In this document: positions 8,304 through 50,145 of the stretch, one piece after another
Layout: each line of letters starts with the position of its first letter
Position numbering within the stretch: the stretch's first letter is position 1
Source: Anaerolineae bacterium
Lineage (GTDB): Bacteria; Chloroflexota; Anaerolineae; Aggregatilineales; Ch27
Direction: 5' to 3'
Length of the DNA: 64,000 bases
Assembly (NCBI GenBank): GCA_034430555.1
Contig: DAOUEM010000362.1
Location: forward strand, 1,722-65,721
The notes under the pieces: generated by a model
Told to the model about the DNA's origin: nothing
The model's database searches: none
Seen by the model: the letters and a program-made list of their open reading frames with translations, nothing else
Position numbers and translations under genes: made by a program

Positions 8304-8325
8304 AGCGTGGTTAAGGAGACTTCTG

Positions 8326-20658: not shown

Positions 20659-20707
20659 TAATCAGGCACTTTTTCGGCGGTGAAGACCCCGCGCGTCCGC
20701 GCCGGAT

Positions 20708-21427: not shown

Positions 21428-21723
21428 ATCAGCCAGCCTGACGCGTCACGGCGCGGCGGGCGCGGGGTACCGGCCCCGCTCGGGCTGCTTTTACCAGGGT
21501 TAGGCCTTAGGGAGGCGTCCGCGCCGCCGGCCCGGCTGCCGGGTAAATTTTAACATAACCCGCGCGCGGCACCGGTGAACGGGCGGCCGATCCCAAGATG
21601 TTGGGGAGCAGCCGGGGGCTTCCCCTGTTGGTAGCCCTTAGCAGCCCACGGACTCGGCACACAGTGATGGTCTGACCGGCAGGGCTAACGTTAAAGATTG
21701 GTGCGAGTTTTACCGAAGCTTAA

Positions 21724-21744
21724 AACCTTAAATATTTTAAGGTT
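21724..21744. promoter_or_regulatory. Perfect AT-rich palindrome AACCTTAAA-TAT-TTTAAGGTT upstream of the dnaA promoter
   Basis: 9-bp arms with a 3-bp centre, ending 16 bp upstream of the -35 hexamer of the putative dnaA promoter. Confidence 0.4.
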
Positions 21745-21760
21745 GGGGCGGGGTTTTGGG

Positions 21761-21789
21761 TTGAGCCGTTGCCGACTCTCTGCTAGAAT
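21761..21789 (+). promoter_or_regulatory. Putative dnaA promoter (TTGAGC-17-TAGAAT)
   Basis: -35 TTGAGC at 21761-21766, exactly 17-nt spacer, -10 TAGAAT at 21784-21789. Implies a 5-prime UTR of about 160 nt. Confidence 0.5.
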
Positions 21790-21956
21790 TAGGGTAACGG
21801 TCCAGATAGGAGCAACCGTCGTTCCCCGGCGCTCCCTCGTCTCAAACATCGACACCATCTCGACAGGTCAGATTACATCGAACCTGACGGCCACGGCACG
21901 GCAGATGTGTTTGTTATTATCCGTTGTGGCTATCGCACCGCTGTTCAGGGGGCTTT

Positions 21957-28440: not shown

Positions 28441-28467
28441 TTGTCACATCATAGCCTGTGCTATACT
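28441..28467 (+). promoter_or_regulatory. Extended -10 promoter-like element (TGcTATACT) immediately before the 8-gene cluster
   Basis: TTGTCA at 28441-28446, 15-nt spacer, TG-c-TATACT at 28459-28467. The ATG at 28476 lies only 8 nt after the -10, which implies a leaderless or near-leaderless mRNA. Confidence 0.4.
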
Positions 28468-28475
28468 GACGCCGT

Positions 28476-28835
28476 ATGGAGAGCGATACCGAACGCGCAC
28501 AGTTGGAAGTACAATTGGCTTTGTGGCGGCAGCGCCTGCAAGCCTGGGGGTTGGAGGGTATCGTGGCGGCGCTGCTGGAGGCCGCCGAGCCGCTCAGCAT
28601 GTTGGGCGCGCAGGTGCTGTACGTGGCGCAGCCGGCCCTGGGCATCTTTCTGCCGGCGCGGCAGGTGGGCCGGTGGGCGCGCTTGCTGGAAGACCCGGCC
28701 AACGTGGCCTGGGTGCGCACCCGGCTCACTGAGCCGACGTTGACCGGGCCGCGGCTCACCGAGCCAGGACCCGCTCTTCACCAGGATGGGACGTCCCCCG
28801 ACGAGGGAGGGGCACCGGATGACTCCGGAGATTAG
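28476..28835 (+). CDS. Cluster gene 1: small protein with a hydrophobic patch (119 aa)
   Basis: First ORF of the co-directional cluster. Overlaps the next start. No motif recognised. Confidence 0.55.
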   Translation: MESDTERAQLEVQLALWRQRLQAWGLEGIVAALLEAAEPLSMLGAQVLYVAQPALGIFLPARQVGRWARLLEDPANVAWVRTRLTEPTLTGPRLTEPGPALHQDGTSPDEGGAPDDSGD

Positions 28836-29676
28836 TGTCTTCACGCTGCTGGTGCTGCTGTTGACTTTCGTGCTCACGATTCTGGGCGCGCAGGTGTTGC
28901 GGCGGCAGCGCGTCCAGCTTTCACTGCGGCGGATTCGCGCCTACCAGGCGATGCCGGTGGCCGTCAGCGAGGCGGTGGAGGGCGAGCGGCCCATTCACGT
29001 GTCCTTTGGCGGCAGCGGGCTGGGCGGGGCCTCGACCATTTCGGCCCTGGCTGTAGCGGACCTGCTTTATCCGTTGATGGAACGAGCGGCCATTGCCAGC
29101 CAGCCGCCCATCGTCTCCCTGAGCGATCCGACGGCGCTGGGATTGGCGCAGGGCACGCTCCGCCGCGCCTACGAGCGTCGCAATAACGTGGAAGCCTACC
29201 GCAGTACCGCCGCCCGCTGGTACCCCCAGGGACCGCGCTCGCTGGCCTTTGCGGCGGGCGTCGCCGGGGCGCTGGCCGACGAGGACTCGAACCTCAGCGT
29301 GGTGGCCGGGCGTTTCGGCGCGGAGATCGCCTTCATCGGCGAGATGACCATGCGCTACGACCAGCTCTTTTTCGGCCAGAGCGATCAGCTCGACGGGCAG
29401 GCGGTGGCCTACGTCATGTCGGAGCGGGCGCTGATCGGCGAGGAGTTGTACGTCGCCGGGGCCTATTTGCCGCGCCGACCGTCACCGCTGCACCTCAGCC
29501 AGCTTTTGGCGATGGAAGGATTGCGTTTCATTGTGATCGCTGCCATCCTGCTGGTAGCCGTCGGGACTTTTATTGCCGAGAACATCGTCATCATCCTGGC
29601 GGTGGTGGTGCTGCTGATCCTGATCACCGGTGGGTTGTTCGGGCTGCGGCTCTGGCGGCAGCGGGGAGGAAACTGA
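28819..29676 (+). CDS. Cluster gene 2: membrane protein with N-terminal TM and C-terminal double TM
   Basis: GAGGGAGGGG RBS 6 nt before the ATG at 28819. TM 'ISVFTLLVLLLTFVLTILGA' and C-terminal 'FIVIAAILLVAVGTFIAENIVIILAVVVLLILITGGLFGL'. Confidence 0.6.
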   Translation: MTPEISVFTLLVLLLTFVLTILGAQVLRRQRVQLSLRRIRAYQAMPVAVSEAVEGERPIHVSFGGSGLGGASTISALAVADLLYPLMERAAIASQPPIVSLSDPTALGLAQGTLRRAYERRNNVEAYRSTAARWYPQGPRSLAFAAGVAGALADEDSNLSVVAGRFGAEIAFIGEMTMRYDQLFFGQSDQLDGQAVAYVMSERALIGEELYVAGAYLPRRPSPLHLSQLLAMEGLRFIVIAAILLVAVGTFIAENIVIILAVVVLLILITGGLFGLRLWRQRGGN

Positions 29677-29680
29677 GCCG

Positions 29681-30307
29681 ATGCGCCGTTTACTCGCTGT
29701 TTTATCGTCGGCCATCGTCATCGGCCTGGGCCTGATCACGCTGTGGGGCCTGTTCCCGGACTCGCCGGTCGCGCCCGTCGCCGCCGGCCTGATCCAGCTG
29801 GTGGTGGTCATCAGCGCGGTGGCGGTGCTGGTCGGCGTGCTGAACCTGCTGTGGGTGCACCTGCAGCGCGTGCTCAACGGCGAGCCAGGCTGGCCTTACA
29901 GTATCGCGCTGTTCCTGGCCGCGCTGGCCGTGATCGCGATCACCCTGCTGGAGCGCCTGGGCGTGCTGAGCGGCCCCTCCTTGAGCGGCTTCCTGTTCAA
30001 CGCGGTGCAGGTCTCGGTGGAGAGCGCGCTGGCCAGTCTGCTGGTGTTTTTCCTGGTATATGCCGCGGCGCGGATGTTACGCCGCCGCTTGACGTGGGGC
30101 GGCCTGCTGTTTGTCGTCACGCTGTTGATCGTATTGGTCGGTTGGATGCAGGTGCCGGCGCTGGGCGCCTTTAACGGCCTCAGCGAGTGGATCCGTACGG
30201 TGCCGGCCTCGGCCGGGGTGCGGGGCCTGCTGATCGGGGTGGCGCTCGGCGCGACCACGGCAGGCGTCCGCGTGCTGCTGGGGCAGGACCCCAGTTATCG
30301 GGAGTAG
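29681..30307 (+). CDS. Cluster gene 3: polytopic membrane protein
   Basis: GGAGGA RBS. The ATG is 4 nt after the previous stop. At least 5 hydrophobic helices. Confidence 0.65.
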   Translation: MRRLLAVLSSAIVIGLGLITLWGLFPDSPVAPVAAGLIQLVVVISAVAVLVGVLNLLWVHLQRVLNGEPGWPYSIALFLAALAVIAITLLERLGVLSGPSLSGFLFNAVQVSVESALASLLVFFLVYAAARMLRRRLTWGGLLFVVTLLIVLVGWMQVPALGAFNGLSEWIRTVPASAGVRGLLIGVALGATTAGVRVLLGQDPSYRE

Positions 30308-30314
30308 TCGCATC

Positions 30315-33300
30315 ATGTCGGACGAACGTCCGTTACCCCAGGATGAAGGACTGCCCGCCTGGTTACGGGGGCGCATTCACCCCTATCCCGGCGAGCCTGC
30401 CCAGCCGTTACCGCCCGCTGGCGCTGGTGCGCCGGGTGATGCGGGTCAGCCCAGTGAGGGCGATGCCATCGACCTGCTGGCCATCTTTGACGCCGCCGGC
30501 GAACCGGGCGCCCCCGAGATTCCCGTTTCCGATGCGGGCGAGGTGCTGCCCTGGGACGCGGATGCCGGCGCGGACCAGGCGCTGCCCTCCGCCGGGGAAT
30601 TAAAGGGCCTGACCGGCGAGCTGCCCTGGATGTCCGACGTGGTGGCCGATGCCTCACCGGATGCGCTGGCCGGACCTCCCGCCGCTGAGTCGCCTGTCCA
30701 GGACGCTGCGCTGCCCTGGCTGGAGGACGAAACGCCGTCCTCGGTCGCCGAAGACGACGTGCCGATGGCCGACTGGTTCGACCAGGCCCCGCCGCCGCCC
30801 GCCATCCCCGCGGAAGAAGGCCCCGGTTTCCTGGAGGATGACGCGACCCTGGCTGGCGCTTTTGACGAGCCGTCGGCCGCCCCGGAGCAGGGCGAGGAGA
30901 CCCCGGATTGGCTGGTCGTGGCTGATGCCCTGGCCGGCGATGAAGCGCCGCCTGATGCCCCGGCGGAGGATGCCGTGCCCGACTGGCTGTCGACCGGCGA
31001 TCTCACGCCGGAAGCAGCCGCGGGAATTCCCGCGGAGGCCCTCGCTCCCGCCGACGCGCCCGACTGGCTGGCCGCCGTCGACGACTTCGGCGGCGACGAG
31101 GATGAGGACGACGAATACCAGCCCGCCGCCTCCGCCGAACCGGTCGGCGATCCGGAGTGGTTGATCACCGATACCGGCGAAGGTCCGGTCGATTTGCTGC
31201 CGGACGACAGCGGCCTGACCTACGAGGAGTGGGAGCAGACGCAGGACGAGGAAGAAGCGGCGCCTTCCCCGGAAGAACTGCTGGCCCAGGAGGTTCCCGA
31301 CTGGTTCGCCGCCATCGACGAGGACGAGGAAGGGGCGGCTCCGCCGCTCGATGCCGCTGCGCCCGCCGCCGAAGGCGCGGATTTCGTGCCGGACTGGTAC
31401 CTCGGCCTGGAAGAGCAGGATACCTCGGAAGCGCCGGAGTGGTTCAATGGCCTGGATTTCTCCGCCGACGCGCTGACTGCCGAGCCGGTCCTGCCGGAAG
31501 CCCCGGAACCGCCGACACCGGAGTCGGCGCCTGCTGCCCCGGCAACGCCCACCGCGGGTGAGGCGCCCGACTGGCTCCAGGACCTGGGCGAAGACATGCC
31601 TGCCGCCGAACAGGCCAAGCCGCCCACCGGGGAACTGGACGAGCTGTTCGGGGATATGGATTTTTCGGCGGATGCCGGGCCGGTGGAGGAAGTGCCGGAC
31701 TGGTTCACGGGTATTGGCGACGACGCACCCGCCCCGCCGCCCGCCGCGCCGCGCCCGCCCACCGCGCCGCTGGACGACGTGGGCGATCTGTTTGGCGACC
31801 TGGACTTCACGCCCGATGATGCCGCCGCGCTGGCCGAGGCCGCCGTCGGGGACGAGGGCGAAAAGATATCGCCGGATTGGTTGAGCGCTATCGGCCAAGA
31901 GACGGGACTGGTTTCCGACCTGCCCGAATTGGACGCCGAGCCTGACTTTGATTTCCTGGCGGACTTACCGTCCGAAGGGGCCGACGCCGACCTAGACGAC
32001 CTGTTTGGCGAGCTGGACGAGTCCGTGGACGAGTCCGTGGACGCAGCTGATTTTGAGGAAGCGGCTGCGCCCCCGCCGCCGTCCCCGGAGCCGTCAGTCC
32101 TGGAGCCGGGCCAAGCCCCTGACTGGCTGGCCGACATCCAGCCGGAAGATATGCCGTTGACCACCGACGGTCTGCTGGCCGGCGGCGGCGATTTTATGGC
32201 CGTTATCGAAGACGAGTTGGGCGAATTCGACCCGTTTGCCGAGGCCGGTGTCAGCCCGGATTCACAGCTGGTGGCCCCCGCCGATGGCACCCTGGACCTG
32301 GAGGCGCTGCTGTCCGAAGGTGACCTGTCGCCTACGTCCGGCGTGGACCGCCCGCCGCCTGCCGCTCCTGGCCCGGCGCCCACCGGCGATGATGCCGAGA
32401 TGCCCGGCTGGCTGCTGGACGCCCGTCCGGACGAGAGCCGTGGCGGCTTCTCCGTGGTGGACGCGGCTATGCGCCAGGCGGAGGAAGCGCCGGTCGAGGA
32501 GCTGACCGATCGCCTCCAGCACCTGCGCGAGGCCACCCGCCGCGCCGCCGAAGCCGCCGAGGATGCGCCGCCAGCGCCATCTGATGCGGCCAGCCAGGTC
32601 CTGGCCGGGGTCACCGACGGCCTTATGCCGACTCACCTGTTCGAGGAGCCGACCGGGCCGGAAGTCATGCTCACCGTGGAGCTGGACGAGGCCCAGGAAG
32701 CCCGCGTCGCCACCCTGGAGGCGCTGCTCGGCCTGGACGCGCTGCACGAGGGCGAGCCCGCCTACGACGAAGACGGCGAGCCGATCCCCGTCGACTACGA
32801 GCAGGAAGCCCTCCGCGTGCGGGAGGCCGCGCGCCGCGCCCGGGCCCGCAGCCGGTTCAAGCCGGGCCGCGTGGTGATCAGCCTGCTGCTGGTGGTGGCG
32901 GCTGTGATCCCCTTCCTGGTGGACCTGTCCTCATTCTTGCAGTTGCCGGTCGCCGCGCTGGACACGGCGCGCCACGGCGAACTGGACGCCCAGATCGAGC
33001 GGCTGGAGCGGGGCGACCTGGTGCTGGTCGGCTTTGAGTACGGCCCCACCAGCGCCGGCGAGATGGACGTGCTGGCCGAGACTCTACTCAGCCATATCCT
33101 GATCAAAGGCGCGGTGCCCGTGATCGTCAGTACCAACCCGGCGGGCACGCTGCACTCGCGCGACGTGCTGGGTGCCCTGGCCGGCGACGAGTGGCTGCTG
33201 GCCCACATGGGCCGTCCGGCCAATCGCCCGCTGGAGACCCCGGACGACTACGTGATCCTGGCCTACCAGCCCGGCGAGTCGGTCGGGCTGCGTTACCTGG

Positions 33301-34214
33301 CCGAGTGTTTCACCGGCACCGGCGCGCTGGATTGCAGCGCCGTCGTGGCCGATTACCAGGGGAACCCGACCGGCCTGGTCGACGTCTCCTTCGCCCTGAT
33401 GATCACGCTGGCCGAGCGCGGCGAAGACGTCCGCCTGTGGGTGGAGCAGGTCGGCGCTGTTGTGCCGGCGCCGCTGGCCGCCGCCGTGACGGTCGGGGCG
33501 GAGCCGATTGCGCGTCCCTATTTCGCCTCCGGGCAGCTGATCGGTCTGCTGGCCGGGTACCGCGACGCCTACATCTACGACACCGTGCTGCTGGCGGCGC
33601 TGCCGCCGGTGCAGGCTCTGCCGCCGTCCGTCGAGGATACGCCCGCCGGGGACGAAACGCCGGTCGAAGCTGCGGCGCTGCCCACCGTTACCCCGACCGA
33701 AGATTCGCTGACCTTCCTGGCCACGCCGACGGCCGGCGAGGTGCTGCCCACCGCGACGCTCCAGGGCCTGGTGACGCGCACGCCGACCCCGTCCCTGACG
33801 CCTTCCATCACCCTGACGCCCTCGCTGACCTTCACGCCCTCGGCGACAGCCACCGCCACGCGCACGCCCACTTTCACCCACACGCCGCGTCCGCAGGACC
33901 TGACCCAGGCGGCCATTGCCATCGGGTCCGGCACGCCGCTGACGGCCACGCCTACCCCGGTGCCGAGCCACACGCCGACCATCGCCCTGGTGACGGAGAC
34001 GCCCGCGCCGGAAGGCACCGTCGTCGATGAAGCGGCGGACGGCACGGTCGTGGCCGACGCCGCCCTGGCAGAGCAGGTCGTGCAGCCGGAGCGCGTCTAC
34101 CGTGAAGAGCGCTGGTACAGCCTCACGCTGAGCGCCATCGCGGCGACCATCGTGATCGGGTTGGGCGCGATGGTGAACATCTTCCGAGGCATTCGCCGGA
34201 GGCGGGAACAGTGA
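30315..34214 (+). CDS. Cluster gene 4: 1299-aa protein (acidic PDW-repeat disordered region / TM / globular domain / Thr-Pro linker / C-terminal TM)
   Basis: About 800 aa are highly acidic, with 12 strict and 4 degenerate P-[DEG]-W-[LFY] motifs. TM 'VVISLLLVVAAVIPFLV', 'TPTPSLTPSITLTPSLTFTPSATATATRTPTFTHTP', and a terminal TM plus 'RRRREQ'. Confidence 0.75.
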   Translation: MSDERPLPQDEGLPAWLRGRIHPYPGEPAQPLPPAGAGAPGDAGQPSEGDAIDLLAIFDAAGEPGAPEIPVSDAGEVLPWDADAGADQALPSAGELKGLTGELPWMSDVVADASPDALAGPPAAESPVQDAALPWLEDETPSSVAEDDVPMADWFDQAPPPPAIPAEEGPGFLEDDATLAGAFDEPSAAPEQGEETPDWLVVADALAGDEAPPDAPAEDAVPDWLSTGDLTPEAAAGIPAEALAPADAPDWLAAVDDFGGDEDEDDEYQPAASAEPVGDPEWLITDTGEGPVDLLPDDSGLTYEEWEQTQDEEEAAPSPEELLAQEVPDWFAAIDEDEEGAAPPLDAAAPAAEGADFVPDWYLGLEEQDTSEAPEWFNGLDFSADALTAEPVLPEAPEPPTPESAPAAPATPTAGEAPDWLQDLGEDMPAAEQAKPPTGELDELFGDMDFSADAGPVEEVPDWFTGIGDDAPAPPPAAPRPPTAPLDDVGDLFGDLDFTPDDAAALAEAAVGDEGEKISPDWLSAIGQETGLVSDLPELDAEPDFDFLADLPSEGADADLDDLFGELDESVDESVDAADFEEAAAPPPPSPEPSVLEPGQAPDWLADIQPEDMPLTTDGLLAGGGDFMAVIEDELGEFDPFAEAGVSPDSQLVAPADGTLDLEALLSEGDLSPTSGVDRPPPAAPGPAPTGDDAEMPGWLLDARPDESRGGFSVVDAAMRQAEEAPVEELTDRLQHLREATRRAAEAAEDAPPAPSDAASQVLAGVTDGLMPTHLFEEPTGPEVMLTVELDEAQEARVATLEALLGLDALHEGEPAYDEDGEPIPVDYEQEALRVREAARRARARSRFKPGRVVISLLLVVAAVIPFLVDLSSFLQLPVAALDTARHGELDAQIERLERGDLVLVGFEYGPTSAGEMDVLAETLLSHILIKGAVPVIVSTNPAGTLHSRDVLGALAGDEWLLAHMGRPANRPLETPDDYVILAYQPGESVGLRYLAECFTGTGALDCSAVVADYQGNPTGLVDVSFALMITLAERGEDVRLWVEQVGAVVPAPLAAAVTVGAEPIARPYFASGQLIGLLAGYRDAYIYDTVLLAALPPVQALPPSVEDTPAGDETPVEAAALPTVTPTEDSLTFLATPTAGEVLPTATLQGLVTRTPTPSLTPSITLTPSLTFTPSATATATRTPTFTHTPRPQDLTQAAIAIGSGTPLTATPTPVPSHTPTIALVTETPAPEGTVVDEAADGTVVADAALAEQVVQPERVYREERWYSLTLSAIAATIVIGLGAMVNIFRGIRRRREQ

Positions 34215-34861
34215 CGCCAGATACGTTAAACACGCTCGCCGGGTGGGTTGGCTTCGTGCTGACCCTGCTGATCTTCAGCTATTTGCTGGCCGATAACTTT
34301 CTGTACCGGCTGGCGGTGTATGTCTTTGTCGGCGTGGCTGCCGGGTTCACCGCCGTCGTGGCGGTGGAAGGCGTGCTGTTGCCCTGGCTGGAAGGCACCG
34401 TGTTTTCCGCGCAAGCCTCCACCGGCGGGATCGTGCTGGGCGTGGTGCCGCTGATCGTCGGGTTTTTGCTGCTGCTGAAGGCCTCGCCACGGCTGGCCCC
34501 GCTGGGCAACCTGGCCCTGGCCGTCCTGATCGGCATCGGCACGGCGGTGGCGCTGGTCGGCGCGGTGAGCGGCACGCTGCTGCCGCTAGTCGGCTCGACC
34601 GGGGGCGCGGTCACCGCCAGCGTGGACGGCCTGGTGATCATCCTGGGCACCATCACCACGCTGTTATACTTCCAGTACCTGGCGGTCCGGCGGCCCGACG
34701 GCGAAATCTCGCGGCCCCTGGCCCTGCGCGCCGCCGGCACCATCGGCCAGGTATTTTTGATTATTGCTTTCGCCTCGCTCTATGCGGGCGCTATTCTGAC
34801 CAGCCTTACCATTTTCAGTGAACGGATCGCCTTCTTGTTGACGCAGGTCGCGGGCGGGTAG
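34211..34861 (+). CDS. Cluster gene 5: polytopic membrane protein
   Basis: GTG start overlaps the previous TGA (GTGA). About 6 hydrophobic helices. Confidence 0.65.
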   Translation: MTPDTLNTLAGWVGFVLTLLIFSYLLADNFLYRLAVYVFVGVAAGFTAVVAVEGVLLPWLEGTVFSAQASTGGIVLGVVPLIVGFLLLLKASPRLAPLGNLALAVLIGIGTAVALVGAVSGTLLPLVGSTGGAVTASVDGLVIILGTITTLLYFQYLAVRRPDGEISRPLALRAAGTIGQVFLIIAFASLYAGAILTSLTIFSERIAFLLTQVAGG

Positions 34862-34880
34862 CTAAACCGGGCGAATAACT

Positions 34881-37103
34881 ATGGCTGAATCGGGCGACAT
34901 CAATTCCATACTGGCGGCGGATTTTGGCAGCGTCAATACGCGCGTCGTGCTGATCGATCTGGTGGACGGCGCCTACCGCCTGGTCGCGCGCAGCGTCACC
35001 CGCACTACGGTGGATGACCCGCTGCGCGACGTGGCCGTCGGCCTGTACCGGGGCGCTTCCCAGATGGCCGAACAGATCGGGCGGCCCCTGGTAGCCGCCA
35101 ACAACGACTCCATCCTCACGCCGGAGGAATCCGATGGCAGCGGCGTGGACGCCGTGCTGGCCACGGCCAGCGTGGGCCGTCCGCTGCGCGTGGTGCTGGT
35201 CGGCCTGATGCCCGATGTCAGCGTGAGCAGCGGCCTGAACGTGCTGGCCGGCTCTTACGTGCAGGTGATCGACAAGCTCTCCCTGGCCGACATCCGCAGC
35301 GAAGAGCAGCAGATTAACGACCTGCTGTCCCGCCAGCCGGACCTGATCTTCATCGTCGGCGGCACGGACGCCGGGGCGGAAGCGTCCATTCTGCGGCTGG
35401 TCGACGTGGTCGGGCAGGCCGTGCAGATGGCCCCCCAGCCGCCGATGGTGCTTTACGCCGGCAATCGCGCCGCGCAGGTGGGCGTCCGCGAGCGGCTGGA
35501 AGGGATATGCACGCTGTTTGTGGCGGATAACGTGCGCCCCAGCCTGATGGACGAGCAGCTCGGCTCTGCCCAGCAAGAATTGGCCGCCGTTTACGACCGG
35601 TTTAAGGTGAACAACCGCTTCGGTTTTGACGAGATCAGCGAGATCAGCGCGATGGGCGTGCTGCCCACCGCCCAGAGTTACACCAACATCGTGCGTTACC
35701 TGGGCGAGATCACGGCGCGCGATCCCAGGGATAAAGGCGCGGCGGCCGTGGGCGTGCTGGCGGTTGACGTGGGCAGCGCCACGACCACCGTGGCCGCTTC
35801 CATCCGCAAGCGCAACACGATCAACATCCGCGCCGACGTGGGGGTGGGGCACAGCGCCGCCGGGGCGCTGGCCGCGACCACGCCCGCCAACGTGCGCCGC
35901 TGGCTCACCTGGGACGCCACCAACGCCGAGATCGCCGATTACGCCTACAACAAAATGCTGCACCCGGCCACCGTCCCCCAGACCGCGCAGGAGCTGGAGC
36001 TGGAATACGCCCTGGCCCGCGAGGCCATCCGGGTGGTGGTCGAGCAGGCGTCGAAGTCCTGGCGGCTGCGCGGCAAGGAGCGTATCCCGGTCCTCAGCCC
36101 ACTGATCGGCGCGGGCACGGTGCTGGCCGGGGCCGCGCACTCCGGCATCGCCGCCCTGATCCTGCTGGATGCCATCCAGCCGGTCGGCGTGACCGAGTTG
36201 TGGCTGGACCCGGCGGGCCTGATCCCGGCGCTGGGCGCGCTGGCTTACCTCAAGCCTTCCTCGGTGGTGCAGATGCTGGACGCGGGCGATCTGGTCATGA
36301 TCGGCTCGGTGGTCTGCGCGGATGGGGGCGTGCGCATCGGGCGCGGCGGCATGAAGGTCACCATCGAGCTGGCCAACGGCGAGGTGATCAAGCGCGGCGT
36401 GGTGGGCGGCTCCCTGTGGACCTACCCGCTGCCGCCGGGGCAGACGGCTAAGGTCGACGTCAGGGTCTCGCGCGGGCTGAGCATCAACGGCCGCTCGCGG
36501 ATCAAGCGGACGCTCAAAGGCGGCGCGGCGGGCCTCATCTTTGATGCACGTGGCCGCCCCCTGGCGCTGCCTCGCCGGGCGGAGGCGCGCGCCGAGTTGT
36601 ACCCGCGCTGGGTGGCCGGCACCAGGGGCCACATTCAACTGCGGGTCTCCGAGGTGGACGAGTCGGCCGTCGACGCCCAGGCGCTGGTCGAAGCGGAAAA
36701 GGCGCCCGAGCCGGACCTGGAAGCCCTCGGCGAGACGGCGGCGGCCCCGGCCCCTAAGCGGCGCGGCTTGTTCGGGCGGCGGCGCGGTACGGTCGAAGCC
36801 GGCCCTGGCGATGGCGACAGTGCCGAACCGGACCTCGATCTCTTTGGCGACCTGGCGGAAGCACCCGCCGAGGACGAAACGCCCGCGCACGCCGCGCCGC
36901 CAGCCGGGGCGAAAGAAAAACCCCGCCGGAGTCGTTTTGGGCGGCGTGGCCGGGCCGAAACAGCCGAGTCAGCCGCCGACGAGCCGGACAGGGACGCGGA
37001 CGAGGAACCGGCGGCGGAACAGCCTTCCGAGATGGATTTGCTGGTGGACGACCTGCGCCTGGACGACGAGCCGAAGAAGCGGCGCGGTCCCTTCCGGAGA
37101 TAA
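34881..37103 (+). CDS. Cluster gene 6: ASKHA-superfamily (GlmL/MutL-like, actin-fold) ATPase with a long charged C-terminal tail
   Basis: Phosphate-1-like 'LAADFGSVNTRVVLIDL' and second-lobe 'VLAVDVGSATTTVA'. The last approximately 170 aa are low-complexity, Arg/Glu/Asp/Pro-rich. Confidence 0.7.
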   Translation: MAESGDINSILAADFGSVNTRVVLIDLVDGAYRLVARSVTRTTVDDPLRDVAVGLYRGASQMAEQIGRPLVAANNDSILTPEESDGSGVDAVLATASVGRPLRVVLVGLMPDVSVSSGLNVLAGSYVQVIDKLSLADIRSEEQQINDLLSRQPDLIFIVGGTDAGAEASILRLVDVVGQAVQMAPQPPMVLYAGNRAAQVGVRERLEGICTLFVADNVRPSLMDEQLGSAQQELAAVYDRFKVNNRFGFDEISEISAMGVLPTAQSYTNIVRYLGEITARDPRDKGAAAVGVLAVDVGSATTTVAASIRKRNTINIRADVGVGHSAAGALAATTPANVRRWLTWDATNAEIADYAYNKMLHPATVPQTAQELELEYALAREAIRVVVEQASKSWRLRGKERIPVLSPLIGAGTVLAGAAHSGIAALILLDAIQPVGVTELWLDPAGLIPALGALAYLKPSSVVQMLDAGDLVMIGSVVCADGGVRIGRGGMKVTIELANGEVIKRGVVGGSLWTYPLPPGQTAKVDVRVSRGLSINGRSRIKRTLKGGAAGLIFDARGRPLALPRRAEARAELYPRWVAGTRGHIQLRVSEVDESAVDAQALVEAEKAPEPDLEALGETAAAPAPKRRGLFGRRRGTVEAGPGDGDSAEPDLDLFGDLAEAPAEDETPAHAAPPAGAKEKPRRSRFGRRGRAETAESAADEPDRDADEEPAAEQPSEMDLLVDDLRLDDEPKKRRGPFRR

Positions 37104-37156
37104 GCGGGCGAGTTTTAGCGCAGCGGCGGCGGGTGGCCGGCTGCTGAGGGTGAGCC

Positions 37157-38236
37157 ATGGCGAATTATTATCCAGACCAATCGACCATCCTGCCGATGTG
37201 CACCATCCGGCGCGAGCGCCTGCTGCCGGAGGACGTGTTCGGCACCGTCACCGTGCGCGAAGGCGAGCACGTCAACGCCATGAATGTCGTGGCGCGCGGC
37301 GTCCGTGCCAACCGCTACGTGATCCTCAACCTGCGCCACCTGCTCGACATGGACGACCCGGACGACATTGAATCCCTGGTGCACGTCGCGCCGGGCGAGG
37401 CCTTCAAGGAAGGGCAGGTCATCGCCGGGGACCAGGAGCACAGCCGCAAATTGGTCCGCGCGCCCGTGAGCGGCATGATGTTGCGCCTGCTGGAAGGCCG
37501 CCTGGTCCTGCAAACCGGCCTCACCGAGGTGTCCGTGCGGGCCGGCTTCAACGGCCAGGTCACGTCGATCCGGGCCAACCGCGGCGTGCTGCTGGAAACG
37601 ACCGGCGCGCTGGTCCAGGGAGTGTGGGGCAACGGCTGCGATCACTTTGGCGTGGTGCAAAAGGAGCCGGAAGGTGGCCTGGCCGCGCTGGAGGTGGACG
37701 AGTTCACCACGGAATGGCGCGGGGCGATCGTGATCACCGGGCGGCCCCTGGTCAAGCTGGCGCTGCACAAGGCGGAGGCCCAGACTATCGGCGGAATCAT
37801 CGCCCCCAGCATGAATGCCGACTTGCGCGAAGTTGCATTACGCCTCAAAATGCCCATAATGCTGACTGAGGGCTTTGGCGATATGCAGATGGGCAGGCTG
37901 GTGTCCGACGTCCTGGAGCAGTATGTCGGGCGTCAGGCCGCCCTCAGCGCCGTCAAGCCGGAACGCGGGCAGGCCAGTCGCCCGGAGGTGATCGTGCCCC
38001 TGCACACCGACGACCGGGTGGCCGCCCCGGCGCGCGACGAGCCGCTGCGGCTGGGATCGGAAGTCCGCCTGACACGGGCTCCTTACCAGGGTATCGTCGG
38101 CAAGGTGGCGAGCCTGCCCAGGACGCCCCAGGTGATCGAGAATGGGCTGCGCCTGCCGGTGGCGATGGTCAACCTGCCCAGCGGGCGTACGGTGACGGTC
38201 CCGCTGGTGAACCTGGAGATGTTTGGACGGGGTTAG
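37157..38236 (+). CDS. Cluster gene 7: hypothetical protein with a barrel-sandwich (lipoyl/HlyD-like) N-domain and a KOW/SH3-like C-terminus
   Basis: 'VREGEHVNAMNVVARG...VAPGEAFKEGQVIAG...VRAPVSGMM' resembles barrel-sandwich hybrids. C-terminal 'YQGIVGKVASL'. Assignment by eye only. Confidence 0.6.
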   Translation: MANYYPDQSTILPMCTIRRERLLPEDVFGTVTVREGEHVNAMNVVARGVRANRYVILNLRHLLDMDDPDDIESLVHVAPGEAFKEGQVIAGDQEHSRKLVRAPVSGMMLRLLEGRLVLQTGLTEVSVRAGFNGQVTSIRANRGVLLETTGALVQGVWGNGCDHFGVVQKEPEGGLAALEVDEFTTEWRGAIVITGRPLVKLALHKAEAQTIGGIIAPSMNADLREVALRLKMPIMLTEGFGDMQMGRLVSDVLEQYVGRQAALSAVKPERGQASRPEVIVPLHTDDRVAAPARDEPLRLGSEVRLTRAPYQGIVGKVASLPRTPQVIENGLRLPVAMVNLPSGRTVTVPLVNLEMFGRG

Positions 38237-38311
38237 CCGCCCCGGTTGGTCGAGGGGGAGATCCCCTCAGTAGTTCGGGGGCTGTTCCCCCACACGGTGA
38301 AGGAGATAGCG

Positions 38312-39127
38312 ATGAGCGACGACGATCTGTTTGGCGACAGCAGAGACGACTTTTTTGGGGATGACGATGATTTTGGGGGAGATACCTTCGACGAATTCGA
38401 GAGTTTTGACGACTTCGATCTCGGCGACGAGGAGGTCGACGCCCCGGACTTCGGCGAGGACTTCACCGCGGAGGAAGGTGGTCCTGCCGGTGCGACGCTC
38501 TTCGGCCTGAACCGCACCTTCGTGCTGATCGCCGGCGCGGCGGCCCTGGTGATCTGCGTGGCGGTCGTCGTGCTGGTACTCGTGATCGGGACGGGCGGCC
38601 CGTCCGACGTGGACCTGACCATCACCGCGGTCTACGCGACCAACACCCAGGTGGCCCTCTTCCTGGAGGAAACCGCGACGCAAAACGCGTTGAGCCTGGA
38701 TATGACGGCCACCGCCGATGCCTGGACCGATACGCCCACGCCGGTGCCGTCCGATACGCCCACCATCGCGCCTACCGAAGTGCCGGCCACCAGCACGCCG
38801 CTCTTCGTGACGCCCACCGTAGACCCCAACCAGTCGGGCGGCGGCGGCCTGGAACCCAATGCCGTGGCGCTGACGGCGACCGCGCTGGCCGGCATCCTGG
38901 CCGGGGCGACCGAAGCCGCGCCTCCCGGTGAGTTCCTCACGCCGACGATCGACACCGGCGCCGGCCCGGGGACCGGCGGCCTTACCCCGATCGCCACGCG
39001 GCTGCCCACTACCGGCCTGTTCGACGACATCGGCACGGGCAACGGCGTCAACGGCCTCCTGACGGCGGGGCTGGCCCTGGTCGGGCTGGCGGCGGTGATC
39101 GTGGTGGCGCGGCGCTTGCGGGCTTAA
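38312..39127 (+). CDS. Cluster gene 8: acidic N-tail / TM / Thr-Pro-rich ectodomain / LPXTG-type C-terminal sorting signal
   Basis: GAAGGAG RBS. 'DDLFGDSRDDFFGDDDDFGGD', TM 'FVLIAGAAALVICVAVVVLVLVI', and a C-terminal 'LPTTG' followed by a hydrophobic stretch and 'RRLRA*'. Confidence 0.7.
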   Translation: MSDDDLFGDSRDDFFGDDDDFGGDTFDEFESFDDFDLGDEEVDAPDFGEDFTAEEGGPAGATLFGLNRTFVLIAGAAALVICVAVVVLVLVIGTGGPSDVDLTITAVYATNTQVALFLEETATQNALSLDMTATADAWTDTPTPVPSDTPTIAPTEVPATSTPLFVTPTVDPNQSGGGGLEPNAVALTATALAGILAGATEAAPPGEFLTPTIDTGAGPGTGGLTPIATRLPTTGLFDDIGTGNGVNGLLTAGLALVGLAAVIVVARRLRA

Positions 39128-39221
39128 CCCGGCGGTTCCTGCCGGACGACCCGGCTTCGCCTGCCCGGCCGTCCGTAGACCGTCGCCTCCTGAGCCGTGC
39201 TGCCGTCTAAAAGTGCTTAAC

Positions 39222-39256
39222 AATCGGCCGGATCGATCTGGCATCCGGCCGATTTT
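39222..39256 (+). terminator. Strong intrinsic terminator closing the 8-gene cluster
   Basis: Perfect 12-bp stem aatcggccggat/atccggccgatt, a 9-nt loop, and a T-run (gatttt). Confidence 0.7.
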
Positions 39257-39367
39257 GGCGTATTATTAGGAGAGTGGCTGCACCCAATCTGCTATTCGTT
39301 TTTACCTGGCGGACGCCTGCTGCCGGCCTGGCCAGACGCGCGGCGGCCGCCCTGATCAGACGGAACT

Positions 39368-40753
39368 ATGTCCACTCAAACTGTCAACCTCTACCGTGAG
39401 CATGATCGCCGGTTCGTCCTCGAAATGCTGGCCAGCGGCCAGTGCGTGGCCGTCATCGGTCTGAGCAACTTCGGCAAGTCCGAGCTGCTGCGCGCCCTGG
39501 AAAGCCCTGAGTCCACCCGCGAATACCAGACCATGACCGGCGCCAACGCGCTCTTCGTCTATGTGGACTGCAACCGGATGCTGGAGCTGTCGCCGCGCGG
39601 CTTTTTTGAGGCCACGCTGCGCGCCATCCTGGAAGTCCTGCCGGCGGAAGAAGTCGAGATGCGGGCCGTGGTCGAGGAGCAGTACCAGATCGTCGTGCAG
39701 CCCCCCAATGATTTCGCCGCGCCCCTGGCCTTCAACAATGCCCTGGTGGCGCTGGTCGAAGACGACTCGCGCGCGCCGGGCCGCCGCGTGATCCTGCTGT
39801 TGGACGAGTTCGACGAGGTGCTGACAGGCATCGAGCCGCGCATCCTGTTGAACCTGCGCGCCCTGCGCGATAAATACGACGTCGACCTGAACTACGTGAT
39901 CGCCTCCGTGATCCCGCCCTCCCAGGGACCGCAAAACGAGCACGTGGCCGAGTTCGCGGAGCTGTTCGCCGTGGGTAAGTGTCTCCTCGGCCCGCTGACT
40001 CCGGCGGATACGCGCCTGATGGCCGCCGAGATCTTTACCGCCGCCGATGACGCTGTCGACGAGCCGGAGGCCGCGTATGTGCTGGCCCAGGCAGGCGGCC
40101 ATCCCGGCCTGATCCGGGCGGTGTGCCGCGTGTTACTCCAGGTGGAAAGCGGCGCGCCCCAGTTATACCAGCAGAAAGCCTTCGAGCTGGCCAACGCCGT
40201 CCTCGAGTCCGACCGCCTGACCCTGATCGAGCTATCCCGCCTGTGGGAGCAGCTTGCCCCCCCGCTGCAGCAGGCCGTGGTAGAACTCGCCGCTTCCGGC
40301 CGCGTCTCGGAGGAGGGGCAACGTCAGTTGGCCCAGCGGGGCATCCTGCTCGAGGGTGGGGGCGATGGGTCGCCGCGTCTTTTTGGGGAACTGTTCGCCC
40401 GCTTCGCCCGCCGTAAAGCGCTGGCCCGGCACGGCATCCCGCAGGGCGTGTGGGTGGATACCGACGCCGGCGAAGTCTGGGTGGACGGCGTGTCCGTTTC
40501 CACCCTCACCGAGCTGGAATACCGCCTGCTGCTGCTGCTGTACGGCCGGCTGGAAAAGATTTGCGACAAGTACCAGCTGGTGGAAGCGGTGTGGGGCCAG
40601 GAGTACATCGACGAAGTGGACGACGCACGGGTGGAAAAGCTGGTCAGCCGGCTGCGCGCCAAGCTGGAGGAGCACGAGGATGCTGCGCGTTACCTGGTGA
40701 CCGTGCGTGGACGCGGCTACAAGCTCTCCAGCGCCCCGGAGCCGGTGACTTGA
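39368..40753 (+). CDS. P-loop NTPase (AAA/STAND-like) fused to a C-terminal OmpR/PhoB-type winged-helix DNA-binding domain
   Basis: Walker A 'GLSNFGKS' and Walker B 'ILLLDEFD'. C-terminal 'LTELEYRLLLLLYG.....C....LVEAVWG.......D.ARVEKLVSRLRAKLE......YLVTVRGRGYKL'. Confidence 0.8.
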   Translation: MSTQTVNLYREHDRRFVLEMLASGQCVAVIGLSNFGKSELLRALESPESTREYQTMTGANALFVYVDCNRMLELSPRGFFEATLRAILEVLPAEEVEMRAVVEEQYQIVVQPPNDFAAPLAFNNALVALVEDDSRAPGRRVILLLDEFDEVLTGIEPRILLNLRALRDKYDVDLNYVIASVIPPSQGPQNEHVAEFAELFAVGKCLLGPLTPADTRLMAAEIFTAADDAVDEPEAAYVLAQAGGHPGLIRAVCRVLLQVESGAPQLYQQKAFELANAVLESDRLTLIELSRLWEQLAPPLQQAVVELAASGRVSEEGQRQLAQRGILLEGGGDGSPRLFGELFARFARRKALARHGIPQGVWVDTDAGEVWVDGVSVSTLTELEYRLLLLLYGRLEKICDKYQLVEAVWGQEYIDEVDDARVEKLVSRLRAKLEEHEDAARYLVTVRGRGYKLSSAPEPVT

Positions 40754-40956
40754 GTCTGGTCGGCGGTGCTCGCTCCCAAGCACATAAATTGTGACATACT
40801 TGATGAAGTGTCTGGGCCTGATGCTGGCCTGATAAACGACTGTTCGGGCGGTTCTGCCGCCGCTGCCCGGTCCGCCGGGACCGTGACCCACCAGCCCGAA
40901 TCGGCGGCTGCCGCGCTGGTGTCCGCCGGTTAAGCCGTTTGAACTCGAGACCATCC

Positions 40957-43900
40957 ATGACCCTGCGCAAACGAACGCTGCTCTACGCCGCCGTCATCCT
41001 GGCCAGCCTGACCCTGGTCCTGGGGCTGATCGCGTACGGGCTGATCTGGGACCTGCTTGGCCGTTGGGAGCAGGAATCGGTCCGCCGCTACCTAGAGAGC
41101 GCCGAGGCGGCGTTGGCGGTTCGGTTGACCGCCCTCAGCACGATCGCCCTCGATTGGGCGCACTGGGATGACACCTACGCCTTTATCGTCGACGGCGACC
41201 AGGCCTATATCGATTCCAATTATTACGACAGCACTTTCACCGACCTGGGAATAAGCCTGGCGGCGCTGTACGATGAGCGGGGCGGGCTGGTGTATGGCAA
41301 GGTCGTGGACCTGGCGACCGGTCATGAAGTGCCGCTGCCGGGGCCGCTGGCGGTCGATCTGCCACCGGACAGTCCCCTGCTGGACCACCCGGACTCGGTC
41401 GGCGGCGTTTCCGGCTTTTTCGTCCTGCCGGAGGGGCCGGTGCTGGTATCTTCCCAGGTGATTCTGCCCAGCACCGAGGATGATGTGCCGCGCGGCACGC
41501 TGGTCATGGGGTTGGAACCGGAGGCCGTCGATTGGGCGGGCCTGCCGGAAACGGCCCGGCTGTCGCTGCTGGCCGCCGAAACAGTCGCGCCGGACGTGCT
41601 GCGCGCGGCAGAACAGGCCCTGACGGGGGGCGATCCGGCCGTCGTGCGCCCCCTCAATGAGCAAGCTATCGCCGGGTACCGGCTGCTGGCGGACGTGAGC
41701 GGCGACCCTGCCGTGCTGCTTTACATCGAGCTGCCGCGTGAGATCGGCGCCCAGGCGCTGGTCGGCTTCGCGCTGGTTTTCCTCTGGCTGCTGCTGATCG
41801 ACCTGTTGCTGGGTGGGGCGCTGTTCTTTATGGTGGAACGGCTGGTGTTGGGCCGGGTGACCGCGCTGGACCGCGACCTGGCCCGGATTGCCGCCGGCGG
41901 AGAGCGCGCCGGGCGCGTGACGGCGACGGGCGGCGACGAGCTGGCCCGCCTGGCCGCCATGATCAATCACACCCTGGACTCGCTGGCCCGGTCGCACGAG
42001 GCCGTTCGCGCCAATGAAAACCGGCTCACCTCGGTCCTTGGCTCGGCCATCAATGCCATCATCATCACCGATGAGGCCCTGACCATCCTTATGTTTAACC
42101 GGGCGGCGGAGCGGATGTTCGGCTGCCCGGCGGCGGAGGCGGTGGGCCGCCCGCTGGGTGATTTGATGCCGGAGCGCCTGCGCGACTTGCAGTTGGCTTA
42201 CATCCGCGAGGCGGGCGCTTCTCCGCCAGAAGCCGACGCCATGGTCCGCGGGGTGATGGTGCAGGGGCAGCGCCGGGGAGGCGCCATCTTCCCGATGGAG
42301 GCGTCCGTGTCGCGCAGCAGCGTCGACGACCAGGTGATTTACTCCGCCATCATTCGCGATGTCAGCGGCCGGGAGCGGACGCTGGCGGCACTGCAGGAGA
42401 GCGAGGAGCGGTTTCGCATCCTGGTCGAACATGCGCCGGACGCCATCGTGGTGCTGGATGAACACTTGCGGTTCGTGAACGCCAATGAGAATGCGGAACG
42501 CCTCTTCGGCCTGAGCCGGGATGAACTGCTGCACCTGGGGCTGGTGGCGGTCAGCCCACCGGTGCAGGAGGATGGACGATCGTCCGCCGAGGTTGCTGCT
42601 GAGTATTTCCACCTGGCGCTGGCCGGAGAAGCCCCGGTGTTTGAGTGGCTGCATCGGGATGCGGCGGGCCGCGTTATCCGCTGCGAGATTCGCTTGGCCC
42701 GGCTGCCGGCGACCGGGCAGTTGCTGGTGCGGGGCAGCATCATGGATATCTCCGCGCCTAAGCAGTCGGAGCGGCTGCTGCGGGGGCAGCGTGCTTTGCT
42801 GGAGCAGTTGGCCGCCGGCGCCTCGCTGACCGAGGTGCTGACCCGGTTGATCGAGCTGCTCGAGTCGTTTATGGAGGGCGCGAGTGGGGCCGTTTTCCTG
42901 TGTGATAAGCGGACCACCACGTGGGAGGAGGCGATCGCGCCCCGCTTGCCTGCCGCCTTCGTCCAGGCGCTGGCCGCGCTGCCCCGGGCGGCGCTGCCGG
43001 GCGGCGCCGATCCGGAGGAGCCGGTGATCGTGCCGGACCTCGCCGCCGATTCCCGCTGCGATGAGCGGTTCCGCGACCTGGCCGTCGCCAGCGGCCTGCG
43101 CGCCAGCCTGTCCTGTGCCATTAAATCGACGGCGGGCGAGGTGCTGGGCTGGCTCAGCCTGTACTATCTGGAGCCGCATGACCCCGGCGAGCAGGACCTG
43201 AGCCTGGCGGAGATGGCGACCCATATCGCCGGCATCGCCATCGAAAATCGCCGCGCCCAGCAGGCCCTGGCCGAAGAACGGAACCTGCTGCGCACGGTGA
43301 TCGACACCATCCCCGACCTGGTCTACGCCAAGGACCGGGAGAGCCGCTTCATCTTCCACAATGACGCACTCTCGACCATTACCGCCGACGCGCTGGCCGA
43401 GCGCGGCGTGTCGTCCTGGGTCGGCCTGTCCGACTTTGACTTCTCTGCGTCGGAGATGGCCAGGGCGTTATATGAGGAAGAACGGCGGCTGATGGAAACC
43501 GGCGAGCCGGTGCTCGATGCCCAGTCGTCGTACGTCGGCGCGGATGGACAGCTCCATTGGCTGTCGACGACCAAAGTTCCCCTGCGCGATGGCGACGGCC
43601 ATATCATCGGTCTGGTCGGGATTGGCCGGGATGTTACCGACATCCAGGTCGCCCAGCGGGACCTGGCCGCGGAGCGGAACCTGCTGCGCACGGTGATCGA
43701 CGCCATCCCGGACCCGGTGTTCGCCAAGGACCGGGAGAGTCGCTTTATCCTCTACAATCGCATGGTGGGGCGCAATGCCGAAAAACGGCTCATGGAGTTG
43801 GGGTTATCCGGGACGTGGATCGGGCACACCGACTTTGACTTTTATCCCCCGGAAATCGCCCAGCGCTATTACGATGAAGAGCAGCGGGTGATGGCGACGG

Positions 43901-45567: not shown

Positions 45568-45590
45568 GGTTTTTTTTGAAGGAGGCGCCA

Positions 45591-50127: not shown

Positions 50128-50145
50128 GGAGCGGGATAGTTTTCG

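Follow-up and report, generated by a model that had tools for sequence, protein, structure and literature searches.

What kind of system is encoded by the run of eight genes found in a 64-kb stretch of DNA from an Anaerolineae bacterium (GenBank assembly GCA_034430555.1, contig DAOUEM010000362.1, positions 1,722 to 65,721; this whole stretch is called the window hereafter)? The genes, named g1 to g8, all lie on the forward strand at positions 28476-39127 of the window, and an initial annotation made from the sequence had presented them as an undescribed envelope or cytoskeletal system driven by an actin-fold ATPase. Our analysis retains the observation itself, the trans-envelope arrangement and the novelty of that proposal, and finds no support for the cytoskeletal part of its interpretation: the cluster is a widely conserved, undescribed envelope-spanning system, the function of which we infer, and its genes encode a predicted membrane-embedded complex with parts on both sides of the membrane. 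The operon probably marks an unrecognised part of the way in which Anaerolineae build or organise their cell envelope.

Few filamentous bacteria are as poorly understood as the Anaerolineae, which abound in wastewater sludge, sediments and hot springs, and little is known of the construction of their cell envelope. An operon that is present in hundreds of their species and that encodes almost only unknown proteins provides a concrete and testable entry to the envelope biology of this class.

One colinear operon in Anaerolineae-type Chloroflexota

The table of open reading frames (ORFs) and their translations confirmed eight co-directional, tightly packed ORFs and reproduced exactly those of the initial annotation, together with all of their junctions. 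The genes g1 and g2 overlap by 17 nt (28819-28835), gaps of 4 and 7 nt separate g2 from g3 and g3 from g4, g4 and g5 share the stop/start overlap GTGA (34211-34214), and the last three gaps (g5/g6, g6/g7 and g7/g8) measure 19, 53 and 75 nt. The reading frames are genuine, because the GC content at third codon positions (GC3) reaches 0.82-0.88 for each of the eight genes in a genome of approximately 66% GC. The existence of conserved homologues for all eight shows that these are true genes, not ORFs that arose by chance.

A promoter-like element, read from the sequence on the forward strand at 28441-28467, precedes the first gene. It is composed of TTGTCA (28441-28446), a spacer of 15 nt and the extended -10 element TGcTATACT (28459-28467), the latter being already recognised initially and ending 8 nt before the g1 ATG (28476); with the start site implied by this position, the g1-g8 mRNA is plausibly leaderless or near-leaderless. 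A consensus promoter scan missed the site because its spacer is only 15 nt long. At the other end, a hairpin with a 12-bp stem and a 9-nt loop follows g8 on the forward strand (39222-39254), its arms being 39222-39233 and 39243-39254. The stem is perfect, as had been reported, but the hairpin is not the textbook intrinsic terminator that it had been taken for, because only TTTT stands at its 3' side, the T run lying partly within the stem; it was missed by a terminator scan and may be a terminator. No Rfam family matched across the whole window.

Is this arrangement peculiar to one genome? A homologue search with g6 returned 654 relatives, every named one originating from Anaerolineae or Chloroflexota metagenome-assembled genomes, and a scan of one genome per species found g6 relatives encoded in at least 574 species-level genomes. 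The best 80 of these genomes, all Anaerolineae-type Chloroflexota carrying labels such as Aggregatilineales, Anaerolineales, Thermoflexus, Ardenticatenia, Candidatus Leptofilum, Phototrophicaceae and similar, were taken with 10-kb flanks for locus analysis. The eight window proteins were searched by single-sequence phmmer against the six-frame ORFs of the 83 loci (81 distinct); upstream synteny was counted in the 52 loci with at least 9 kb on the 5' side of g6, and downstream synteny in the 53 loci with at least 6 kb of flank.

The detected genes among g1-g6 were colinear and on one strand in 52/52 loci, and g7 came directly after g6 in 67 of 68, so that the homologues are indeed syntenic, a point on which the initial proposal depended. 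The complete g1-g5 set was detected in 43 of the 52 loci, g4 being missed in seven and g1 in two; in the two loci lacking a g4 match that were examined, the g4 slot holds a giant and more divergent ORF (for instance, 2382 aa in locus L057). Gene order is kept down to 35% identity in g6. Separate gene calls in two further loci, L001 and L002, gave the same order and the same 4-nt overlap between g4 and g5, which is thus present in three lineages when the window is included. This colinearity argues for an operon-like unit conserved across the class and not for a local accident: g1-g8 form one vertically inherited operon, characteristic of Anaerolineae-type Chloroflexota.

A few irregularities were observed. 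Extra DNA of approximately 1-1.7 kb separates g5 from g6 or g6 from g7 in three loci (L052:7213-8201, L054:6505-7351 and L004:8195-9946), and an intact g4 is seemingly absent from the last of these. They could be insertions or assembly errors within an otherwise rigid gene order.

The distribution also bears on the idea that the cluster belongs to a mobile defence island, an idea prompted by a gene encoding a ThsB-like TIR protein upstream (24448-26292) and one encoding a STAND NTPase downstream (39368-40753). However, PADLOC gave no match for g1-g8 and matched only the upstream TIR protein, to ThsB; the TIR gene is found near the cluster in only one other locus. The cluster is moreover class-wide and colinear, its divergence looks vertical, it sits among the housekeeping genes dnaA and ychF, and neither a patchy, strain-variable distribution nor flanking integrases were seen. 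We regard a defence island as very improbable, and a defence role as essentially excluded.

The MutL-family protein g6 and its constant partner g7

The most informative product is g6 (34881-37103, forward strand), a protein of 740 aa in which Pfam and AlphaFold2 delineate a MutL/GlmL-family ASKHA region (residues 1-468), a beta domain with a helix (approximately 470-582) and a charged tail (585-740). It matches the Pfam MutL family PF13941 with 203 bits (cut-off 27, E=1e-59), residues 10-467 covering positions 1-447 of the 450 of the model. In contrast, it scores below the cut-offs of GlmL NF040745, the methylaspartate/glutamate mutase accessory protein (96.7 bits versus 475), and of glmL_fam TIGR01319 (68.2 bits versus 204). 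On these profile scores g6 is assigned to the Pfam MutL family and not to GlmL proper, and MutL is the only Pfam family found for it; FtsA and MreB are absent from both Pfam and NCBIfam results at E<=0.1.

The two phosphate-binding motifs that had been recognised in g6, AADFGSVNTRVVLID (12-26) and VDVGSATTTV (295-304), were confirmed, and the family conserves the key residues of both: D14, G16, T20 and R21 of the phosphate-1 motif and D296, G298 and S299 of the phosphate-2 motif are invariant or near-invariant in the family alignment. Conservation within the family extends to approximately residue 580. That the system is ATPase-driven, as proposed initially, is an inference from these conserved motifs.

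The AlphaFold2 model of g6 has a mean predicted local distance difference test score (pLDDT) of 79.9, mostly above 85 over residues 1-584, and displays an ASKHA core, an extra seven-stranded beta domain (approximately 470-555) with a helix, and a disordered tail. Neither the g6 sequence nor a g6 profile found a sequence relative among the solved structures of the PDB. Foldseek returned 182 PDB matches at E<=1e-3, the best 50 of which are all ASKHA proteins, headed by acetophenone carboxylase beta (5e-10) and PilM (5e-7), followed by glycerol kinase, Hsp70, FtsA and ParM. The ASKHA fold on which the initial proposal was built is thus borne out by both the Pfam match and the structural comparison.

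The tail of g6 (36630-37103) varies in length among orthologues. Many carry a basic RRGLFGRR-like patch, of which the window protein has three copies, and many end in a short (D/E)ELRNLLS-like helix; the patch and the terminal helix may be candidate membrane- or partner-binding peptides.

NCBI annotates relatives of g6 as 'glutamate mutase L', and this label, together with the Pfam match, raises the alternative that g6 is a GlmL-like reactivase of a B12-dependent mutase encoded elsewhere, its neighbours being unrelated to it. The sub-cut-off scores given above argue against such a metabolic chaperone, as do the extra conserved beta domain and the tail. Its genomic context does so as well: its neighbours are g5 and g7 both in the window and at essentially all 81 distinct loci, mutase subunits are never next to it across more than 80 loci, and Pfam revealed neither a B12-binding nor a mutase domain in those window ORFs that were scanned. 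This agrees with the initial annotation, according to which the partners expected of such a protein, namely glutamate mutase, PilNOPQ or divisome components, are missing from the cluster; none was detected by Pfam or NCBIfam. A reactivase role has next to no likelihood in our estimation and can be considered essentially excluded.

A second alternative suggested by the fold is a cytoskeletal or assembly platform, in which g6 would polymerise on the membrane, or act in the manner of PilM or FtsA, and recruit bitopic partners in the service of septation, filament integrity, cell-cell junctions or an unknown surface appendage. PilM, FtsA and ParM are among the structural matches, the RRGLFGRR-type patch and terminal helix of many g6 tails recall the membrane-targeting tail of FtsA, and the membrane proteins g4 and g8 resemble PilN in having an N-terminal cytoplasmic peptide followed by one transmembrane segment. 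Yet Pfam identifies g6 only as MutL, and searches with Pfam and NCBIfam detected no pilin, PilB/T, PilC, PilO/P/Q, prepilin peptidase, FtsZ, Mre, PBP or RodA gene in the cluster. Furthermore, its best structural match and its sequence family comprise enzymes and chaperones that are not known to polymerise: to our knowledge, neither GlmL/MutL proteins nor acetophenone carboxylase beta form filaments. The cytoskeletal role proposed initially is therefore unsupported, and we consider the platform alternative unlikely; roles in gliding, at the septum or at cell junctions are speculation. The recently described cyanobacterial actin FcmB derives from ParM and is unrelated.

The gene that follows encodes g7 (37157-38236, forward strand), a cytoplasmic protein of 359 aa for which AlphaFold2 and Foldseek point to a new family. 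This family comprises 2369 clusters at 50% identity (E<=1e-3); among the best 150 of these, nearly all sequences are approximately 355 aa long, apart from shorter fragments, and there are no fusions. The model (pLDDT 86.8) consists of three domains: an N-terminal barrel-sandwich hybrid resembling NqrA, domain II of Thermotoga maritima NusG and the SI3 insertion of RNA polymerase, a central alpha/beta domain resembling LdcA/MccF, PA-like domains and UPF0107, and a C-terminal KOW/SH3-like barrel resembling Spt5 KOW5 and PsaE. These Foldseek matches are domain-level only, with whole-chain TM-scores of at most 0.25. A profile search of the PDB agrees with them, ranking NqrA (0.008) and uL24/Spt5 (0.03-0.1), and the scores of g7 against the Pfam families RnfC_N and NQRA_N (15 bits) are below threshold (approximately 25).

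Membrane proteins and two proteins predicted to reach the wall

Hydropathy upheld the membrane topologies that had been assigned to the other products. The first of these, g1 (28476-28835, forward strand; 119 aa), belongs to no family: it has no match in Pfam or NCBIfam and no transmembrane segment at the threshold used. It has a conserved core at approximately 11-90 with invariant P39, A45 and P53, and its gene lies upstream of g2 in 50 of the 52 loci with enough flank. In turn, g2 (28819-29676, forward strand), found in 52/52 of these loci, is a member of DUF6754 (Pfam PF20539; 3.2e-20, 72.8 bits, gathering cut-off 27), a family without known function, and a g2 profile found no sequence relative in the PDB. 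Its hydropathy reveals an N-terminal transmembrane segment (5-23), a domain of approximately 200 aa and a C-terminal transmembrane hairpin (approximately 236-277); by the positive-inside rule, the domain is cytoplasmic.

Two further membrane proteins, g3 (29681-30307; 208 aa) and g5 (34211-34861; 216 aa), both encoded on the forward strand, are polytopic with approximately six transmembrane segments each and belong to no known family; a Pfam scan of 48 g3 and 47 g5 family sequences at lenient E-values found no recurring family. Invariant residues of g3 are G52, N55, L56, H60, S74 and F144, and g5 was detected in 83/83 loci. Paralogy between the two was rejected by BLASTP and hhalign (probability 0.2%). 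A weak hhalign resemblance between the cytoplasmic domain of g2 (52-180) and the ectodomain of g4 (approximately 895-1035; E=0.01, probability 4%) is probably noise.

The largest product, g4 (30315-34214, forward strand; 1299 aa), was dissected by hydropathy, conservation and motif counts. An acidic disordered region of approximately 850 aa is followed by a transmembrane segment (853-871) and an alpha/beta domain (approximately 875-1095); a Thr/Pro linker then leads to the second transmembrane segment (1272-1290), after which the chain ends in a basic tail. The two transmembrane segments had been correctly recognised; the globular domain of roughly 350 aa proposed with them is smaller, since the conserved ectodomain spans approximately 230 aa (875-1095). 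The conserved core of g4 consists of a cytoplasmic juxtamembrane segment of approximately 150 residues, the first transmembrane segment and the outside alpha/beta domain. Profile searches with this core found no match in Pfam or the PDB, and a homologue search with the core profile returned five proteins only.

The acidic region is variable in sequence and retains a short motif, P[DE]W[LF]. The window protein contains at least 12 strict and at least 17 loose copies; at least three copies are present in 51 of the 60 full-length orthologues, and one orthologue of 2675 aa has 36, whereas a rough estimate from amino-acid frequencies predicts well below one copy per protein by chance. P[DE]W[LF] is a candidate bacterial short linear motif, the partner of which is probably encoded in the same operon. 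An 'LFGD' motif common to g4, g6 and g8 of the window is not kept in orthologues and was dropped as a functional element.

The orientation of g4 can be deduced from its orthologues. Some of them start with N-terminal zinc ribbons, which places this end in the cytoplasm. Of 33 orthologues, 16 have SH3_3 domains that follow the alpha/beta ectodomain and precede the last transmembrane segment, at the position of the Thr/Pro spacer of the window protein, which places this stretch outside. Bacterial SH3 domains commonly bind peptidoglycan, so that contact with the wall is indicated. Nothing else recurred in Pfam scans of the g4 family at lenient E-values; the scans of the g3, g4 and g5 families covered 33-58 members each. 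Elsewhere in the window (15030-19700), two adjacent genes encode SH3_3 proteins of 618 and 489 aa, that is, proteins with the same type of wall-binding domain as in the g4 orthologues, and are followed by a gene for a 412-aa protein without family.

The last product, g8 (38312-39127, forward strand), was analysed for the anatomy of its sorting signal. An acidic, Phe-rich N-terminal tail is followed by NRTF, a transmembrane segment (approximately 71-89), a Thr/Pro ectodomain, LPTTG-LFDD, a second transmembrane segment (approximately 248-266) and RRLRA. The C-terminal arrangement, LPxTG-[LF][FA][DE][DE] with a hydrophobic helix and RRLR, was found in 56 of the 71 ORFs in position 8. A pattern scan for LPxTG signals over all ORFs of the 83 loci gave 54, every one in the slot downstream of g7, and g8 is the sole LPxTG-signal ORF within the 64-kb window. 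In one locus (L069:13341-14380), a tandem pair of LPxTG-signal genes takes the place of the single gene after g7.

At their N-terminus, the g8 orthologues share an acidic Phe-rich tail of 13-108 residues, a conserved NRTF and a hydrophobic span of approximately 23 residues; the ectodomain varies and occasionally has a PPC or CarboxypepD_reg fold. As the basic C-terminal tail must be cytoplasmic, so must the N-terminal tail, and the N-terminal span looks uncleavable, its approximately 23 residues seeming too many for a cleavable signal peptide. Judged from this anatomy, g8 has the C-terminal features that define a sortase substrate and lacks the N-terminal cleavable Sec signal peptide. If a sortase acts on it, the N-terminal helix would keep the processed protein in the membrane, with the C-terminal threonine bound to the wall. 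We know of no described sortase substrate with such a doubly anchored topology.

These features raise the alternative of a dedicated biogenesis or sorting machine, in which g2, g3, g5, g6 and g7 would insert, export or anchor g4 and g8 as cargo and form no lasting complex with them, in a way reminiscent of the accessory Sec system, which serves one LPXTG adhesin. Such a machine would account for the confinement of LPxTG proteins within the 83 loci to the slot downstream of g7, as well as for ectodomains of g4 and g8 that vary alongside five constant components, and an Hsp70-like ASKHA fold would suit the handling of long disordered chains. However, no component resembling SecA/SecY, a sortase or a signal peptidase was found, conservation in g4 and g8 centres on the cytoplasmic tails, which do not have to be exported, and we know of no translocon driven by an ASKHA protein. 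We hold this alternative to be improbable.

Proposed function, genomic neighbourhood and known systems

Chloroflexota are regarded as monoderm bacteria with multilayered envelopes (PMC13319060). Within such an envelope, we tentatively read the operon as encoding a complex, regulated by an ATPase, through which the cytoplasm is coupled to the cell wall, a reading to which we give somewhat less than an even chance. The DUF6754 protein g2 would form a membrane platform with g3 and g5, and g6 would dock on its cytoplasmic face together with its constant partner g7. There, g6 would work not as a filament but as an ATP-dependent switch or clamp comparable to PilM, Hsp70 and the reactivases of B12-dependent mutases, binding and releasing the multivalent acidic cytoplasmic tails of the wall-reaching g4 and g8. 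PilM binds the N-terminus of PilN and Hsp70 binds linear motifs; the choice of the component that binds P[DE]W[LF] or the acidic tails is a guess.

On the side of its ligands, g4 would present the P[DE]W[LF] repeats inside and, outside, the alpha/beta domain with bacterial SH3 (SH3b) domains or a Thr/Pro spacer. Likewise, g8 would present its Phe-rich acidic tail inside and be linked to peptidoglycan by a sortase through LPxTG, with its N-terminal transmembrane segment still in the membrane. Cytoplasm, membrane and wall or surface layer would thereby be physically coupled in a regulated manner, the complex serving as a tether or organiser of the envelope of a monoderm filament, controlled in many lineages by the adjacent STAND-type regulator and histidine kinases described below. 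The trans-envelope architecture proposed initially has been strengthened, both by the SH3b domains in the outside part of many g4 orthologues and by the conservation of the LPxTG signal of g8.

Several points weigh against this coupling complex. Five of the eight proteins (g1, g3, g4, g5 and g8) are without family, and the MutL-family members characterised so far work on soluble B12-dependent enzymes rather than on complexes in the membrane. Fewer than half of the loci have the regulators next to the cluster. No sortase was found in the window or in the 83 loci (approximately ±10 kb) by phmmer with Staphylococcus aureus SrtA and an active-site regular expression, supplemented by a Pfam search of most ORFs in the window; the sensitivity of this test is limited, and cleavage of g8 is therefore putative. 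Finally, g8 has no match in NCBIfam, a collection that includes an LPXTG-anchor model.

The genes downstream of g8 bring regulation into the picture. The first (39368-40753, forward strand) encodes, according to Pfam, a STAND-type NTPase (AAA_16/nSTAND1) fused to a Trans_reg_C winged helix (winged helix-turn-helix, wHTH); it is found directly after g8 in 19 of the 53 loci, distant lineages included, which gives substance to the link with the cluster that had been suggested, and its product is likely a regulator of the cluster. A promoter-like site (CTGGCA, 17 nt, TATTAT; 39238-39266) overlaps the 3' arm of the hairpin and lies approximately 100 nt before this gene, suggesting that the STAND-wHTH gene has its own promoter. 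Pfam further identified, all on the forward strand, a CHASE4/PAS/GAF histidine kinase (40939-45567; a PAS histidine kinase in 13/53 loci), a hybrid receiver-histidine kinase (45564-46712; 15/53 loci) and a PspA/IM30 family protein more loosely linked to the cluster (46947-47636; downstream in 6/53 loci, including the distant L070, L075 and L080). The recurrence of these genes ties the operon to signal transduction and possibly to membrane stress, though not universally.

Could the cluster itself then be a sensor of envelope stress or mechanical strain, g4 and g8 reporting strain to g6 and g7 and these relaying it to the STAND-wHTH protein, the histidine kinases and PspA? In favour of this alternative, STAND-wHTH, PAS kinase, receiver-kinase and PspA genes recur directly downstream in distant lineages, and the architecture combines a wall-binding part outside with multivalent tails inside. 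However, these neighbours are missing within 6-9 kb from more than half of the loci, a set of eight structural genes is large for a sensor, and Pfam and NCBIfam identified no signalling domain in g1-g8. We judge a sensory function doubtful.

The wider neighbourhood holds further observations. PspA/IM30 opens what looks like a run of membrane-stress and signalling genes (46947-51734), the others encoding a 784-aa Ser/Thr kinase with TPR repeats, a 277-aa protein without family and an NfeD-like protein. On the upstream side, the genes (Metallophos, TIR-PD40 and dnaA) are common only to close relatives. The TIR-PD40 product (614 aa) combines an N-terminal ThsB-like TIR domain (PADLOC, 8e-8) with beta-propeller repeats of PD40/WD40-like type and may function in defence or signalling. 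The dnaA gene (21924-23453) lies approximately 5 kb upstream of the cluster, a linkage common only to the closest relatives (L005 and L006). It is preceded by 1.26 kb without a called gene (20659-21923), and GC is 0.61 in the 20001-22000 bin; this gene-free stretch and the dip in GC suggest that the chromosomal origin is possibly located here, while E. coli-type DnaA boxes are not enriched in the window (four found versus 3.9 expected). Farther away, 6386-9213 has a GC of approximately 0.60 and no high-GC3 ORF and is possibly foreign DNA; it comprises an alpha/beta-hydrolase-like ORF with an HSDGG motif (6386-7594) and an ORF for a 295-aa protein of unknown family (8326-9213).

A bolder version of the coupling complex is that the operon specifies a class-defining nanomachine of the Anaerolineae, in which a GlmL-type ASKHA protein, once a chaperone of B12 enzymes, was repurposed as a membrane-docked switch that, with g7, grips the multivalent cytoplasmic tails of two peptidoglycan-fixed proteins; we see this as possible, yet distinctly on the unlikely side. 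If true, one protein would be fixed to the wall non-covalently, through SH3b domains, and the other covalently, by a sortase, while both are embedded in the membrane. This would amount to a new mechanical coupling of cytoplasm, membrane and wall, possibly behind the integrity of the filaments, connections at septa or movement on surfaces. More generally, the operon would take the GlmL/MutL branch of the actin/Hsp70 superfamily beyond the repair of soluble enzymes to membrane complexes, and it predicts a new class of sortase substrates, linked to the wall yet anchored in the membrane.

How does the operon relate to systems already described? Searches of Pfam, NCBIfam, PADLOC and the literature map the cluster onto no known pilus, divisome, secretion or defence module, consistent with the novelty claimed initially, and full-text literature searches returned nothing published about DUF6754, this MutL subfamily or the P[DE]W[LF] motif. 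An Rnf/Nqr-type complex was envisaged from the NqrA-like start of g7 and the presence of two six-helix proteins. The barrel-sandwich of g7 matches NqrA weakly (0.008-0.012 in sequence, 6.6e-4 in structure), and g7 shares with NqrA/RnfC the succession of a barrel, an alpha/beta domain and a small beta domain; however, its whole-chain TM-score with NqrA is approximately 0.15 and no cofactor motifs were detected in it. The idea was rejected because the 48 g3 and 47 g5 sequences have no match to an Rnf-Nqr family at E<=1.

With the LPXTG sortase substrates of monoderm bacteria, g8 shares the LPxTG, the acidic residues, the hydrophobic span and the basic tail, but it differs at the N-terminus by its acidic tail of 13-108 residues and its long transmembrane anchor. 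FtsA, and MreB with MreC/MreD, have in common with the cluster the ASKHA fold and an operon with bitopic and polytopic membrane proteins, and the tail of g6 could mediate membrane association as in FtsA; there is, however, no sequence-family relationship of either to g6. GlmL/MutL is an accessory protein of glutamate mutase, related to the B12-enzyme reactivase Or-4 and, by analogy, to DdrA and EutA. It shares with g6 the Pfam family, the ASKHA phosphate motifs and, presumably, an ATP-dependent conformational switch. The differences lie in the sub-cut-off scores of g6, its additional, conserved beta domain and its charged tail (up to approximately 155 aa in the window), and in its neighbours, which are membrane proteins, with no mutase subunits nearby in any locus.

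The remaining comparison is with PilM-PilN(-PilO) of type IV pili. The cluster is not a member of this group, because the defining pilus partners are absent and the likeness of g6, for which PilM is the second-best structural match, is fold-level only; the membrane partners are here a giant wall-binding protein and an LPxTG protein. By architecture, nonetheless, PilM-PilN is the nearest analogy: a cytoplasmic ASKHA protein is likewise encoded beside bitopic membrane proteins, and the short N-terminal cytoplasmic peptides of these membrane partners could be the ligands of g6.

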